Part shown: piece after piece, positions 5,765 through 48,426 of the stretch
How the letters are laid out: each line of letters starts with the position of its first letter
Numbering within the stretch: position 1 is the first letter of the stretch
IMG/VR virus record: IMGVR_UViG_3300030294_000676
From: a virus
Lineage: Duplodnaviria; Heunggongvirae; Uroviricota; Caudoviricetes
Length of the DNA stretch: 64,000 nt
Strand: one strand, 5' to 3'
The notes under the pieces: generated by a model
The model's database searches: none
The model's input: the letters and a program-made list of their open reading frames with translations, nothing else
Told to the model about the DNA's origin: nothing
Made by a program: the position numbers and the translations under genes

Positions 5765-5818
5765 TCTTTGTAATTAAAAATTTAATCAGTTTATAGATAT
5801 TATATGGAAAAATTATTA

Positions 5819-5826
5819 TACTTTTG
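5819..5826 (+). promoter_or_regulatory. Bacteroidota-type -7 promoter element upstream of the HNH gene
   Basis: TACTTTTG matches TAnnTTTG. It lies in an AT-rich intergenic gap 21 nt before ATG 5848. Confidence 0.55.
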
Positions 5827-5847
5827 TATAATATCAAAAAATAAAAT

Positions 5848-6495
5848 ATGGGTTATAAGAAAGAATCTAAAATATGTGAACATTGTGGAGCTGAATTTCA
5901 AGGGATAAAAACTAGAAAATATTGCAGTCAAGAATGTTCACATAATTCTAGAAAATTAAGAAAGATATTAATTTGTGAAGAATGTAATAAAGAGTATGAA
6001 GTTCAAGAATATAGAGATTCTAAATTTTGTTCGCATGAATGTAAAGTTAAAAATAAAAGTTCAGATATAATAGCAATACAATGTACTAATTGTGGTTCAA
6101 ATTTTAATAGAAAAGAACATCTTATTAATTCTACAAATAATTTCTGTTGTAAAAAATGTTCAGAAGAATACACAATAGGTAAAAATCATTATGAATGAAA
6201 AGAATGTAATCATATTGAAGGAAGAAAAGACGCATTTAGAAAATGAGGAAAATTAGTAAAAACTCGAGATAATTATACTTGTCAAAATTGTGGTAATTCT
6301 GAAAAAACTATACAACATGCTCATCATATTATTCCAAAATCAATTGATAACTCATTAGAATTTGATGAAACTAATGGAATAACTTTGTGTATATATTGTC
6401 ATTATATTGCTCATGATGGAGATATAAAATCTCAACGATTAATTAATGAATATATAAAAAATTATGAAATATACAATATCAAATCAAATGAATAA
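5848..6495 (+). CDS. Free-standing HNH homing endonuclease with N-terminal CxxC repeats, 215 aa (2 TGA=Trp)
   Basis: Three CxxC...CSxxC repeats. After TGA 6196 and a second TGA the frame continues TRDNYTCQNCG...HAHHIIP...NGITLCIYCHYIAH (HNH fold) to TAA 6493-6495. Confidence 0.85.
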
Positions 6496-11574: not shown

Positions 11575-13427
11575 TGAAATATAATATAAATAAATTTCAA
11601 CAAGGGGGTGGGTTTGCAACATTCACCCCCATCATTGAACAACAACCTGTACAAGCAACTTCTTCATCATCTAGTTCATCTAAAGAAAGTAAACATACTA
11701 TTTCATCTATGTTAGATGATGATGTATTTAAAGATTTAATGGGTAAAGGTTTAGTAAATGATGTTAACGGATTTGTTTCTGAATTAGCTAAAATTGAATC
11801 AACTAATTCGGGAAGTATGTATCCATATGCTCAAAGTAATAATAGAGCAATGTCATTAAGATTAGTTGGTAAAATTAATGAACTTAAACAAAGTAAATCT
11901 GCTTGAGATGAAGCTGCTAAAACAGCTACTGCTGCAGGAGGTTATGGTGAAGTTGCTGTAAATAATGATATGGTTTATGGTAAAGATGCTAAAGGAAATG
12001 TTAGTGCAATTAACGTTAACGAATACGATAAACACAAAGATCAATATAAACTATTATCTGTTGCAGAGTTATTAAATGAAAGACAATATAATCCTAAATT
12101 ATCAGGACAAAATTCAATATTTGATGTTGCAAATAATGCTATTGGGTTAGATAAAATAAAAACTAATCTTAAAGATTTAATTGCTTCTTTAGGAACAGAA
12201 GATACTCATAATGAAAATTTTTATTCTAAAGATCAAGTTAAAGGACAGTATGATATTTTAAAATCACAAGTATCAGTAAAAGGTCCAACAAAAGAACAAC
12301 AATCTGCTTTAGAAAGTTTAAATCAAATAATTAACACTCCTGGAGATCATTATAAAGTTATTACAGAAAATAGTTCAGAAAGAAATCATATTGATAAAGC
12401 TTTAGACTATTTATGAAAAACAATGGATGTTCATGCTCAACAAAAACTAAAAGCAACTGCTATAGTTAATGGTGGTAAAGATCCAAGAGATTTTATATTA
12501 GATATGTTGATTACTAATACAACTGCTAAAACATCTTCTGCGATTTCTCCAGAGAAATTACCAGGAGCTACAGAAGAAGCTTCAGCCGCGGCAAAAGGAT
12601 TAGCTAATGTATCACCTTTTGAATTATTACATAATGGCAAAACTGGTTCAGCTCCAATGCAATGAAATGATATTACAACTAATAAGAAAATGATATTACA
12701 TGTTACAGGTGCTGCAAGATTAGCTACAGAAGATGGAACTCCATTAGGTATGACTACATTTAAAAATATAATGAATTCTAAAAATGGTTCTCTTGTTGAT
12801 ATGAGTAAGGCTACATTTGGTGATAAAATTATTGGAATGAAAGGCGCTAATGATATTATTTATGATGGTGGAACTGCTGCTAAAGTATATATGCCGTCTA
12901 ATAATGATGGTACTGTTAATTATAATGCACTTAAACAATTTAATGAAGTTCAATCAGAAATTGAAAAACATAAAAATGATTGGTCTCCTGCTATAATCAA
13001 TGATTATTACAAACGTCATGGATTTGGATATGTTCAAGTTGGTAATGATTTTGTAGTACGAGAAAACAATAATATAAAACCATTCTTAATAATGTATGGT
13101 TATACTGCTGAAGGTGCTTCTGAAGCAGATAATAATTCTGAAGTTAAAGCCTTGGACAGTAAAGAACAAGATACTGTATCAGATGCTTTAAAAACAGTAT
13201 GAAAAGATAATAAAGTTAAGGCTCCTACTGGTTGAACTGATATGACAACCACTTATTATAAAGGAATGATTGCAGTTCCATATAAACGAGATGCTTCTAT
13301 ATATGCTGCTTCAATTGCAGGTCATATGCAGAATAAACAACAAAACTTAACAGATGCTAGAGTAGATCTGCAAAAATATGAAACTCCACAAGTTAAAGCT
13401 GATTTCAGTTTTTTCAATAGTAAATAA
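11574..13427 (+). CDS. Virion cargo protein, 617 aa (5 TGA=Trp)
   Basis: ORFs 11574, 11970, 12423, 12690 and 13242 are all frame 0 and joined by TGAs. N-terminus MKYNINKFQQGGGF. Ends TAA. Confidence 0.75.
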
Positions 13428-38595: not shown

Positions 38596-38640
38596 AAAAA
38601 AATCCCCTAACCGTTAAGGCTAGGGGATTTTCTTGTTTTA
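38596..38640. terminator. Bidirectional intrinsic terminator between the convergent arms
   Basis: AAAATCCCCTAACC-GTTAA-GGCTAGGGGATTTT, flanked by an A-run on the left and a T-rich tract on the right, between the stops at 38595 (+) and 38638 (-). Confidence 0.8.
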
Positions 38641-39345
38641 TTTAGTTGTGTAAAAAGTATTAGCGTAAGATTCACGTTCTTTATTATATTTCTTCATACG
38701 TTCATATTTATTAGCAAATGCATAAGCTGCTTCTGCTGGAGATTTAGCTTGTAATATAGCTGCTTTTGCATGCTTTTGTGTATTATTTAATTCTCAATTA
38801 ATAAACTCTAATTGATCTTGTGCTGTAGATGAATGTACATCTTTACCCATAATGCGTTTAAAATCCGCTTGTCTTGGTCCTTCTCATTGAGCTAAACCAA
38901 ATCCTGGACCGCCATTATTTTGAGGTCGCATATGATTTAAACCTGATTCTGCATATAGATTACCAGTAATACCAGAAGCTACTTCTTTAGTATAACCTTT
39001 ACCCATAAAGAATTTAATTGCTTCTTTAGCTTTTTGAGAAACAGATACTTTTGGTGTAAAAACAGAAGCATTAACATTAATATCATTTAATGCTTTTTCA
39101 GGAGTAGACATTGGAACTTTAGTTAATTTATTAACTAATAACGCAGCTATATCGGTATCTTTACTAGGTGTAGAGATATTAGGAATTGATTGTGTAGTAG
39201 TAGCTTGATCTAAAAATTTAGTCATAAAAGGATTGTCTGGAACAAGTCCATTATCTTGATAATATTGTCTAGCTTCTTGTGCTCGAGAGTCATTAGCTAT
39301 TTCTATAGGTTTGAATGTTGCAAATTGGTTTAATTCATTAGGCAT
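38638..39345 (-). CDS. Phage tail-type lysozyme (Phage_lysozyme2-like), 235 aa (2 TGA=Trp)
   Basis: ASGITGNLYAESGL...GFGLAQ-W(TGA 38884)-EGPRQADF...QDQLEFIN-W(TGA 38794)-ELN...SPAEAAYAFANKYER; ends TAA 38638-38640. Confidence 0.85.
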
Positions 39346-39370
39346 AATAAAAGTGTTTTAGTTTAACTCA

Positions 39371-39398
39371 CAAAAGTAATAATAATTTTTGGAATAAA
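39371..39398 (-). promoter_or_regulatory. Bacteroidota-type promoter for the lysozyme gene
   Basis: The minus strand reads TTTATTCCAAA-N7-ATTACTTTTG; TACTTTTG matches TAnnTTTG, 25 nt before the ATG. Confidence 0.6.
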
Positions 39399-39407
39399 TA
39401 TCATAAA

Positions 39408-39460
39408 TTAAAAAAAAATAGGGGAACCCACAGCTTTCGCCATGAGTTCCCCTATTTAAT
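39408..39460 (-). terminator. Strong intrinsic terminator ending the replication arm
   Basis: The minus strand reads ATAGGGGAACTCATGGC-GAAA-GCTGTGGGTTCCCCTAT followed by a T-run (17-bp stem with G-U pairs, GAAA tetraloop). Confidence 0.85.
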
Positions 39461-39479: not shown

Positions 39480-39674
39480 CTATTCATCTCCATAGATTTT
39501 CATTTTCTCCTCACATTTATCACAAAACTGCGCAGGTATTTTAATTTCCCCACTTGCAGCTTTAGTTTCATCTTCTGTAAAATGATGAGAATACTTTATA
39601 ATCGTACTACATTTAGAGCACAATAATACAGGATTCCCACCATTTAATTTAAATTTTGCTTTCGATTTCGCCAT
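39480..39674 (-). CDS. Small Zn-ribbon protein (CxxC...CxxC)
   Basis: MAKSKAKFKLNGGNPVLLCSKCS...FCDKCEE; ATG 39674 preferred over the track start; TAG stop. Confidence 0.65.
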   Translation of the reverse strand: MAKSKAKFKLNGGNPVLLCSKCSTIIKYSHHFTEDETKAASGEIKIPAQFCDKCEEKMKIYGDE

Positions 39675-41804: not shown

Positions 41805-42130
41805 TACCAATTGTATGTATATGATTTTTTAAATGCATTTAGCATTTCTTCTTTTACATTATCTATGATAGTTTCATCAATACCTTGATTAGCTAATCTT
41901 GTAACTAAATCTTCAACACTGCTAACGCTGTATTTATCAGCATCGTTATAATAAACGGATACATCCACAAAATGTGAATCAAAGTAGTAGTAATCATCTT
42001 CACCTAAACCAGATCTTACGAATTCATACCACCTTTCACTTAATGGAATACTTTTATCCATAACATATTTCATCATATGCTTAGTTGCTGCACTTTTAAG
42101 TGCTAAATAATTATCTACTATTTCTTTCAT
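41804..42130 (-). CDS. Hypothetical protein
   Basis: 108 aa ORF tightly coupled to both neighbours. Confidence 0.6.
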   Translation of the reverse strand: MKEIVDNYLALKSAATKHMMKYVMDKSIPLSERWYEFVRSGLGEDDYYYFDSHFVDVSVYYNDADKYSVSSVEDLVTRLANQGIDETIIDNVKEEMLNAFKKSYTYNW

Positions 42131-42843
42131 ATCTTATTGTATTTAAATTTATTATTTTCATAACTGTAATATTCATCGTGTTCTAAACAATCTGCTAATA
42201 ACAGATTTTCAACTTCTTGTGGTGAATTCTTTCTAATTCTAGTGTGTCCTACTACTTGGATATAACCATCAATCATATCTTGTAATAAACTTACAGGACG
42301 AACCCATAAAGGTCCCTGCCATAAATCATCACCAGAACCGTCTTGACAAAATTCTTTACAAATAAAATCATATTTATCAAGACACGTTTTATCTTCAACA
42401 TGTTTTCTAAAATCCTCATTTAAACCATCTTCATCAAAAGAAAGTTCAGATTCATCTAGCCAAGTTTTAGTAAATCCTGCATGAGAACATACTATATTAT
42501 CATCAATAAAGTGACATAATTTAATAACTCCTGTCTTAATTGCATTATAAAGAACTGGAGCCATATTTTCATAAGTTCCATCAACATATCTACATTTATT
42601 AGCAAAACTTTCAAATGCAGCTAAATCATGATTTCCTATAAGCATTATTACTTTAGTTGGATTGGCTATTTTAAATTCAAGAATATCGTTAAAATTACGA
42701 ACCATATCAACAAGTGATATAGTCCAATCATAAGGATCAAAATAATCTCCCATGAAGATAAACTCATCAGCATCCTTTTCTTTCTCAACTATCTGTTTCC
42801 AGTTAGTTCTTCCATGGATATCTCCAATTATTATTTTTTTCAT
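42127..42843 (-). CDS. Calcineurin-like metallophosphoesterase
   Basis: IIGDIHG, FMGDYFD, LIGNHD, SHAG and VVGHT. Ends in TGA (ATGA overlap) with a TAG three codons later. Confidence 0.85.
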   Translation of the reverse strand: MKKIIIGDIHGRTNWKQIVEKEKDADEFIFMGDYFDPYDWTISLVDMVRNFNDILEFKIANPTKVIMLIGNHDLAAFESFANKCRYVDGTYENMAPVLYNAIKTGVIKLCHFIDDNIVCSHAGFTKTWLDESELSFDEDGLNEDFRKHVEDKTCLDKYDFICKEFCQDGSGDDLWQGPLWVRPVSLLQDMIDGYIQVVGHTRIRKNSPQEVENLLLADCLEHDEYYSYENNKFKYNKI

Positions 42844-47143: not shown

Positions 47144-47461
47144 TTATAAAAATAATATTGTTATAAATACAATTAATGCAAATATACCAATCATAGTATA
47201 CATACATCCTTGATTAGATGAATTAGATGATAATATTTCTTCATCAGTTAATTCATTTTCAGAAATACCTTGTCCAGGTTTAAACATATGACCACAATTT
47301 ATACATGTTATTTGTATCTTATTACTACCAATAAAACCAGCAGTTAATCCAATACCACCAGTTAATAATCCACCTATTACAGCTTTTCCTCCACTAAATC
47401 CTTTCTTGTTTGCTGTTAATTTATCTGAACTACATTTTGGACATCTTATTTTATTTTCCAT
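47144..47461 (-). CDS. Zn-ribbon/glycine-zipper membrane protein
   Basis: CPKC...KKGFSGGKAVIGGLLTGGIGLTAGFIG...CINC, plus a C-terminal hydrophobic helix MIGIFALIVFITILFL. Confidence 0.7.
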   Translation of the reverse strand: MENKIRCPKCSSDKLTANKKGFSGGKAVIGGLLTGGIGLTAGFIGSNKIQITCINCGHMFKPGQGISENELTDEEILSSNSSNQGCMYTMIGIFALIVFITILFL

Positions 47462-48341
47462 AATTTTCTTCTTTTATCCATTTATATTTTTTATATATCT
47501 CACATTTATTATTGTAACAATCTCTAATTCTACTAATAGAGTATCCTAATTCTTGATGTATTTCAACAGCACAGCTCCATCTTTTTATTATATTATTATT
47601 AGAATCTAATTGTAAAATTGGAATAGATCTAGGATTTTTATCTAATGTTTTTCCATACATTGAATTTCCTTTACCTTTTCTAGCATTACTCATTTTTTCT
47701 TTAACTTTATTAGAAAATTTACATCCAGCTGTTCCTTCACCTCCATTTGTTTCATTATATCCAAATTTAGGATTATTTGATTCAAATAAATTAATAAATT
47801 CTATTTCTTTTCCACAAATAATAGAATCTATTAATTTTTTATTTTCTTTATTGTTATCAACTATTTCTGTTTGATATAATACATGTTTTTCAAATACATT
47901 TCATCCATATTTACGGATGGATCTATAAAAATAGTAATCAGAATGTTTTGATTTATTTAAATGTGCAGAAAATCTACTACTTAATTTCATAATTGTTTTT
48001 CCAATATATTTTTTATTATTTATAGGATTTATAAATAAATAAATAGATCCTATTATTTCTAATTTTCCTGAAAGTTCAATCGGATTTGAAACAATATAAT
48101 TAGATAATTTTATATTTGGAATTTTTGAAATATCGTTTCGCTTTTTTAATTTAGAACAAGCTGGACACCCATGATTATCTAAATGAATATTCGGAGTTTG
48201 TTCAAATTCACCATGTTCTTTACATACAATTATTACTTTCTTAGATGATTTTTTATAATCAACTTTAGAATAATCGTATTTTTCATTATGAACTAATTTT
48301 GCTTTCTCAATAAATTCTTGTGTTGTTAATGTTTTACCCAT
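47451..48341 (-). CDS. Free-standing GIY-YIG homing endonuclease (N-terminal Zn module, NUMOD3/NUMOD1-like tail), 296 aa (1 TGA=Trp)
   Basis: Track ORFs 48341 and 47693 are one frame joined across TGA 47901-47903: GSIYLFINPINNKKYIGKT...RKYG-W-NVFEKHV...GKEIEFI...GYNETNGGEG...MSNARKG...PILQLD...KRWSC. Confidence 0.85.
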
Positions 48342-48364
48342 ATTTTATAATTTTTTAGTTTATA

Positions 48365-48372
48365 CAAAAATA
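48365..48372 (-). promoter_or_regulatory. TAnnTTTG -7 element upstream of the GIY-YIG gene
   Basis: The minus strand reads TATTTTTG(TA), 23 nt before ATG 48341. Confidence 0.5.
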
Positions 48373-48426
48373 ATAAAATAATTTTATGAAAAAACTATAT
48401 TATGTAAAAACTATAAAATATAATGA

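Follow-up and report, generated by a model that had tools for sequence, protein, structure and literature searches.

The lysozyme unit between the two arms

The window, the whole stretch of DNA that was analysed, comprises 64,000 nucleotides of an IMG/VR record of 112,425 bases, which is estimated to be 63% complete and has 29% G+C. A match to Crass_capsid (PF23898; E 8e-13) lies just outside the window, at L093:9502-10929, and the phage is therefore placed in the Crassvirales. Between an arm of late genes and an arm of replication genes stands a lysozyme gene, and the features of this region are the following.

373-38595, plus strand: late arm, ten large genes, uninterrupted only with TGA as a Trp codon
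38596..38634, both strands: two-way terminator, a hairpin that has one T-run per strand
38638..39345, minus strand: lysozyme gene, 235 aa with TGA read as Trp, ending in TAA at 38638
38794..38796, minus strand: in-frame TGA, codon 184, at the Trp of QLEFINWEL (QLxFIxWEL)
38884..38886, minus strand: in-frame TGA, codon 154, at the Trp of GLAQW
38947..38949, minus strand: codon of Glu133, the presumed catalytic residue
39370..39390, minus strand: putative host-type (Bacteroidota-like) promoter region, made up of TACTTTTG and an upstream AAAAATTATTAT extension
39371-39378, minus strand: promoter element TACTTTTG, of the TAnnTTTG type, 25 nt 5' of the ATG
39407..39457, minus strand: upstream intrinsic terminator, a 19-pair hairpin (39416-39457) followed by a T-run, which ends the replication and nucleotide-metabolism operon
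39480-64000, minus strand: replication arm, approximately 40 replication and nucleotide-metabolism genes, including ThyX, ligase, dATP/dGTP pyrophosphohydrolase and a Metallophos phosphoesterase

The gene upstream of the lysozyme stops at 39480, and the hairpin and T-run that follow it are unusually stable (-30.7 kcal/mol, z -7.5; 0 of 200 shuffled sequences were equally stable). Downstream, the two-way hairpin (-24.5 and -18.4 kcal/mol) occupies the 42 nt that separate the lysozyme stop from that of a convergent late gene encoding a 1556-aa protein. The TAnnTTTG motif is not enriched over the AT-rich window as a whole, with 101 occurrences found and 113 expected; in the gaps upstream of minus-strand genes it occurs six times in 933 nt, which is an approximately 10-fold enrichment (Poisson p 5e-5), and the lysozyme promoter would presumably be used by the host RNA polymerase. 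Promoters of sigma-70 consensus were also considered and were rejected, there being 55 matches against 49 expected. The claim of an earlier note on this DNA, that the lysozyme is an isolated transcription unit with a strong upstream terminator, its own TAnnTTTG element and a bidirectional terminator downstream, is borne out by these features.

The unit was compared across the window and eight further lineages, with protein identities ranging from 89% to about 50%, and the order terminator, promoter, lysozyme, terminator is common to all nine. Their upstream hairpins range from -23 to -32 kcal/mol, with the T-run ending 62-65 nt 5' of the ATG, the TAnnTTTG element lies 22-26 nt 5' of the ATG, and there is a hairpin 3' of the gene as well; the stems of these hairpins vary among lineages by compensatory changes. 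At every locus that reaches far enough, the next gene past the lysozyme is a convergent, TGA-containing gene of the late strand, which encodes about 1,550 aa on those contigs that contain it completely (L097 has one additional small ORF in between). That diverged lineages share this layout indicates that the unit is real, old and conserved.

The lysozyme domain and its two in-frame TGA codons

Residues 105-233 of the lysozyme match Phage_lysozyme2 (PF18013; E 1.3e-31, 110.1 bits against a cut-off of 28.2), and a search of the genome with the PF18013 profile recovers the same gene again, with both TGA codons within the match. Among proteins of solved structure, gp13 of phage phi29 comes nearest with its N-terminal lysozyme-like domain, in sequence as well as in predicted fold: the structure model of the lysozyme has pLDDT values of 83-95 across most of residues 100-235, and its best Foldseek matches are 3csq and 3csr (probability 1.0, TM-score 0.66 by target). 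The motif GNLYAES of the lysozyme aligns with GNMQSES of gp13, so that Glu133, which is nearly invariant in the homologue alignment, corresponds to Glu45 of gp13, which we take to be the catalytic residue there. The gene product is best explained as a ‘tail lysozyme’ (PF18013) of the phi29-gp13 type, which would hydrolyse peptidoglycan, its activity being predicted from sequence and from the structure model. Residues 1-100 form a clade-specific N-terminal region that is modelled with low confidence; longer, fused relatives of these 100 residues were searched for and none was found, and DNA searches of cultured-phage records returned no close relatives.

Decoded with table 11, the lysozyme frame yields a product of 153 aa (38884..39345, minus strand). 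As Glu133 precedes codon 154, this product retains the glutamate and loses approximately 80 of the roughly 130 domain residues. The Trp encoded at codon 154 is invariant in 19 homologues and that at codon 184 is Trp throughout the phage clade, while phi29 gp13 has Trp at both aligned positions. Downstream of the first TGA, dN/dS between the lysozyme and seven relatives is 0.17-0.5, which indicates that this part is translated and under purifying selection. The earlier note had placed the TGAs at conserved Trp residues of GLAQW and QLxFxxWEL, and had stated that standard decoding truncates the domain just past the region of the catalytic Glu; the alignment of the 19 homologues and of gp13 confirms the first of these points and the 153-aa stump, which keeps Glu133, the second.

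The frame is open to TAA in all nine lineages, and seven of them have TGA at both conserved Trp sites; among these, six have TGA as the only Trp codon of the gene and one has three TGA and one TGG. The other two, L100 (89% identical) and L096 (78% identical), have TGG at both sites (0/2 TGA each). The late neighbour gene of L096 is 77% identical to that of the window, and at two aligned positions its Trp codon is still TGA, so this phage recodes late genes and does not recode its lysozyme. The lysozymes of L100 and the window differ by a dS of about 0.4, at which two synonymous flips are unremarkable. The lysozyme alleles look mosaic: P0005 combines the N-terminal half of P0004 with the C-terminal half of P0002, while the window lysozyme resembles P0004 in its C-terminal half and P0002 in its N-terminal half, and TGG/TGG goes together with a single C-terminal allele. 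From sequence, this suggests that recombination between co-occurring phages may lie behind alleles P0001, P0002, P0004 and P0005.

Across the window, Trp codons are divided sharply between the two arms, the late arm having 66 in-frame TGA and 41 TGG and the replication arm 0 TGA and 73 TGG, the latter counted with the GIY-YIG endonuclease gene left out (Fisher p 9e-21). The lysozyme gene, on the replication strand, has two TGA and no TGG. The statement of the earlier note that TGA use is not set by strand therefore holds, in that TGA tracks gene class (66:41 late, 0:73 replication, 2:0 lysozyme); that the lysozyme is made late would follow from this use of TGA by gene class. Only one replication-arm gene, that of the Metallophos phosphoesterase (42127-42843, minus strand), terminates in TGA. 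A TAG stands two codons further on (TGA AAG AAA TAG), so read-through late in infection would add only three residues.

Besides the lysozyme, a second minus-strand gene requires TGA to be read as Trp and lies inside the replication arm, and this gene and an HNH endonuclease gene share with the lysozyme an extended form of the promoter, AAA(A)TTATT..TAyTTTTGT, of which there are only three copies in the 112-kb record.

47451..48341, minus strand: GIY-YIG/NUMOD3 homing-endonuclease gene, with an in-frame TGA at 47901-47903 in the catalytic domain (RKYG-W-NVF)
5848..6495: HNH endonuclease gene, TGA-containing, with the extended promoter
39370-39390 (minus), 48364-48385 (minus) and 5808-5827 (plus): extended promoter copies before the lysozyme, GIY-YIG and HNH genes, respectively

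Each copy lies 20-24 nt 5' of the ATG of a stand-alone TGA-containing gene, and TGA-free replication genes bear elements of the TATCTTTG type. A second TGA-containing HNH gene has a TATCTTTG promoter instead, so the link between the extended promoter and TGA is not absolute. In a relative, the gene that immediately precedes the lysozyme unit (L004:3-662, plus strand; found again at L003:2-538) encodes an endonuclease-like protein with a T5orf172 domain; with four TGA and no TGG, it is a recoded gene of the selfish type on the replication strand.

About 70 TGA codons require decoding as Trp, and no tRNA gene with a UCA anticodon was present among the 22-24 tRNA genes of the 112 kb of this 63%-complete record, when searched with ARAGORN under default and relaxed settings, the Rfam tRNA model and a motif scan. 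A release-factor gene (PF00472) was likewise not found in the genome. In the tRNA array, which lies outside the window, 12374-12541 of G000 C1 includes a tRNA-like gene in which a C(UUCG)G tetraloop replaces the anticodon loop and, adjoining it at 12460-12541, an atypical tRNA-Trp(CCA) whose variable arm is long.

Virion enzyme or endolysin, and the meaning of the TGA pair

The lysozyme carries no signal sequence, SAR or other membrane segment, its N-terminus being hydrophilic, and no holin, spanin or other membrane-protein gene lies beside it; its neighbours encode a zinc-ribbon protein and the 1556-aa late protein. Nor was a holin or spanin gene identified anywhere in the 63%-complete record, for which a hydrophobicity scan gave too much noise to single out holin candidates, and Amidase_2 was not found in it. 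The genome does hold a second muralytic gene, with both of its Trp codons TGA and none TGG, approximately 11.6 kb before the start of the window.

L093:12111-12626, minus strand (G000 C1 110110-110625), late strand of the genome: GH24 Phage_lysozyme gene, 170 aa (PF00959, E 3e-29)

Only one gene, of 331 aa, separates it from the Crass_capsid gene. The phage therefore encodes another muralytic enzyme besides the PF18013 lysozyme, and this GH24 lysozyme of the structural arm is the likelier endolysin of the two. Cultured-phage records with a PF18013 domain number 254; the approximately 120 matches listed from these carry annotations such as tail lysin, tape measure, gp13 homologue, baseplate hub and structural protein, and none of those listed is annotated as an endolysin. 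Taken together, the missing signal or SAR segment, the lack of an adjoining membrane-protein gene, the GH24 lysozyme elsewhere, the PF18013 annotations and the context of the related segment in IAS virus, described below, make it more likely that the lysozyme is virion-associated, or a wall hydrolase used at entry, than that it is the endolysin. Two points count against a virion role: endolysin-like stand-alone PF18013 proteins with a peptidoglycan-binding domain exist in other phages, and it would be unusual for a virion component to be encoded by a stand-alone gene with its own promoter.

The earlier note had taken the TGAs to lock a lysis gene as a timing device. Stated in full, the lysozyme would be an endolysin or lysis accessory whose TGAs are selected because they prevent wall damage before the code switch and so time lysis. 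Several of the observations above are those expected of such a lock: standard decoding truncates the domain, seven of the nine lineages have TGA at both sites and six have no TGG at all, the gene is insulated under its own promoter, and stand-alone PF18013 proteins of endolysin type do occur. An early enzyme confined to the cytoplasm should in this case be harmless, given that there is no signal or SAR segment and no adjoining holin gene, as holin-endolysin biology has it that an endolysin confined to the cytoplasm does no damage early. Preferential recoding of lysis genes has been published (Borges et al. 2021 preprint, 10.1101/2021.08.26.457843), and by that measure the lysozymes do not stand out, since their pooled TGA share, 18/23, is not above that of the neighbouring late genes, 86/128 (Fisher p 0.34). 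Close relatives carry TGG/TGG alleles, and L096 among them still recodes its late neighbour. A GH24 lysozyme is encoded elsewhere, and the PF18013 family is annotated overwhelmingly as virion-associated, in tail and other virion proteins. The timing claim is weakened by these findings, and we consider a selected lock possible but doubtful. The TGAs of the lysozyme behave as ordinary synonymous Trp codons, without detectable selection as a lock; there may be weak selection for TGA at the conserved sites, as seven of the nine lineages keep both.

The extended promoter invites a further, speculative proposal, which we regard as unlikely: that it forms a separate class which links the code switch with the transcription of enzymes that could be harmful, and that the lysozyme is a free-standing, ejected, wall-cutting cargo of the crAss-like virion that acts with the adjacent giant cargo proteins.

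It is very improbable that the host itself reads TGA as Trp (code 4), in which case there would be neither a switch nor any gating. Such a host would account for the finding of no suppressor tRNA or release-factor gene in 112 kb; against it, the replication arm has 73 TGG and not one TGA despite 29% G+C, one replication-arm gene uses TGA as its stop, the Bacteroidota-type TAnnTTTG promoters and the Crass_capsid gene point to a Bacteroidota host with the standard code, and Yutin et al. (2021, PMC7886860) report the same pattern for crAss-like phages whose hosts use the standard code. That the gene is decaying, or that the 153-aa product is the real protein with the part downstream untranslated, is scarcely credible: table 11 does give an ORF of 153 aa, which public gene callers list as well, but dN/dS downstream is 0.17-0.5, the conservation extends to phi29 gp13 and the frame is open to TAA in 9/9 lineages.

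On balance, and with modest confidence, we favour the reading in which the lysozyme is a self-contained, late-made and probably virion-associated hydrolase, whose TGAs drift like synonymous codons. The unit would run from the terminator through the host-type promoter and the lysozyme to the two-way terminator, where the replication and late arms converge, and full-length, active enzyme would arise only as long as UGA encodes Trp. That requirement would put the lysozyme in the post-switch, or late, translation class despite its position on the replication strand. In this AT-rich lineage, its Trp codons would pass back and forth between TGA and TGG with no dedicated safety lock.

An insulated gene with two recoded codons, and with natural TGG alleles in sister phages whose late genes are still recoded, offers a compact test of the effect of recoding, as a comparison of the TGA and TGG alleles would tell gating from drift that is neutral. 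The present evidence speaks against a lock that is obligatory.

Comparison with known recoded phages and wall hydrolases

Reading of TGA as Trp in late genes is known from crAss-like phages, and recoded genomes without a detectable suppressor tRNA have been reported, so that recoding and suppressor do not always occur together (Yutin et al. 2021, PMC7886860). In the preprint of Borges et al. (2021, 10.1101/2021.08.26.457843), recoded structural and lysis genes are described beside replication genes in the standard code, a role of recoding in lysis timing is proposed, and a recoded endonuclease gene is described within an early gene. The present genome resembles these published cases of late-gene recoding, TGA-to-Trp or TAG-to-Gln, which come from crAss-like and other phages of hosts with the standard code, in having in-frame stops in its late genes and standard replication genes. 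It resembles them too in that homing-endonuclease genes embedded among early genes are recoded, the GIY-YIG gene being the parallel of the recoded endonuclease of Borges et al. (10.1101/2021.08.26.457843). It differs in that the recoded muralytic gene lies by itself on the strand of the replication genes, with a promoter and terminators of its own, in that this gene is not preferentially recoded, and in that close relatives have reverted both codons to TGG.

Among wall hydrolases, the nearest characterised counterpart is phi29 gp13, the structural prototype of PF18013 (PDB 3csr/3csq), with which the lysozyme shares the domain, the equivalent of Glu45 and both Trp positions. In gp13, which sits at the tail tip of a podophage of Gram-positive hosts, a second, C-terminal domain is a peptidase; the lysozyme has a clade-specific N-terminal region of about 100 aa and no second enzymatic domain. 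Within the Crassvirales, gp063 of IAS virus (Steigviridae) contains a PF18013-like segment with 36% identity over residues 102-207. This protein is a 466-aa fusion with an SGNH hydrolase (L101:8353-9753; NC_049978.1, 36089-37489), and its gene is not stand-alone, lying in a virion module between the genes for an IHF-like protein and a tail tubular protein.

In its architecture, i.e. a single gene with its own promoter and flanking terminators at an operon junction, the unit is reminiscent of phage ‘morons’. Classical morons are accessory genes of temperate phages that are expressed in lysogeny, whereas the lysozyme unit has a core muralytic function and has been kept across lineages down to 50% identity. 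Set beside these systems, the lysozyme is a clean, ordinary instance of published late-gene recoding and adds little to it; what is distinctive is that it stands alone on the strand of the replication genes and that natural TGG alleles exist.
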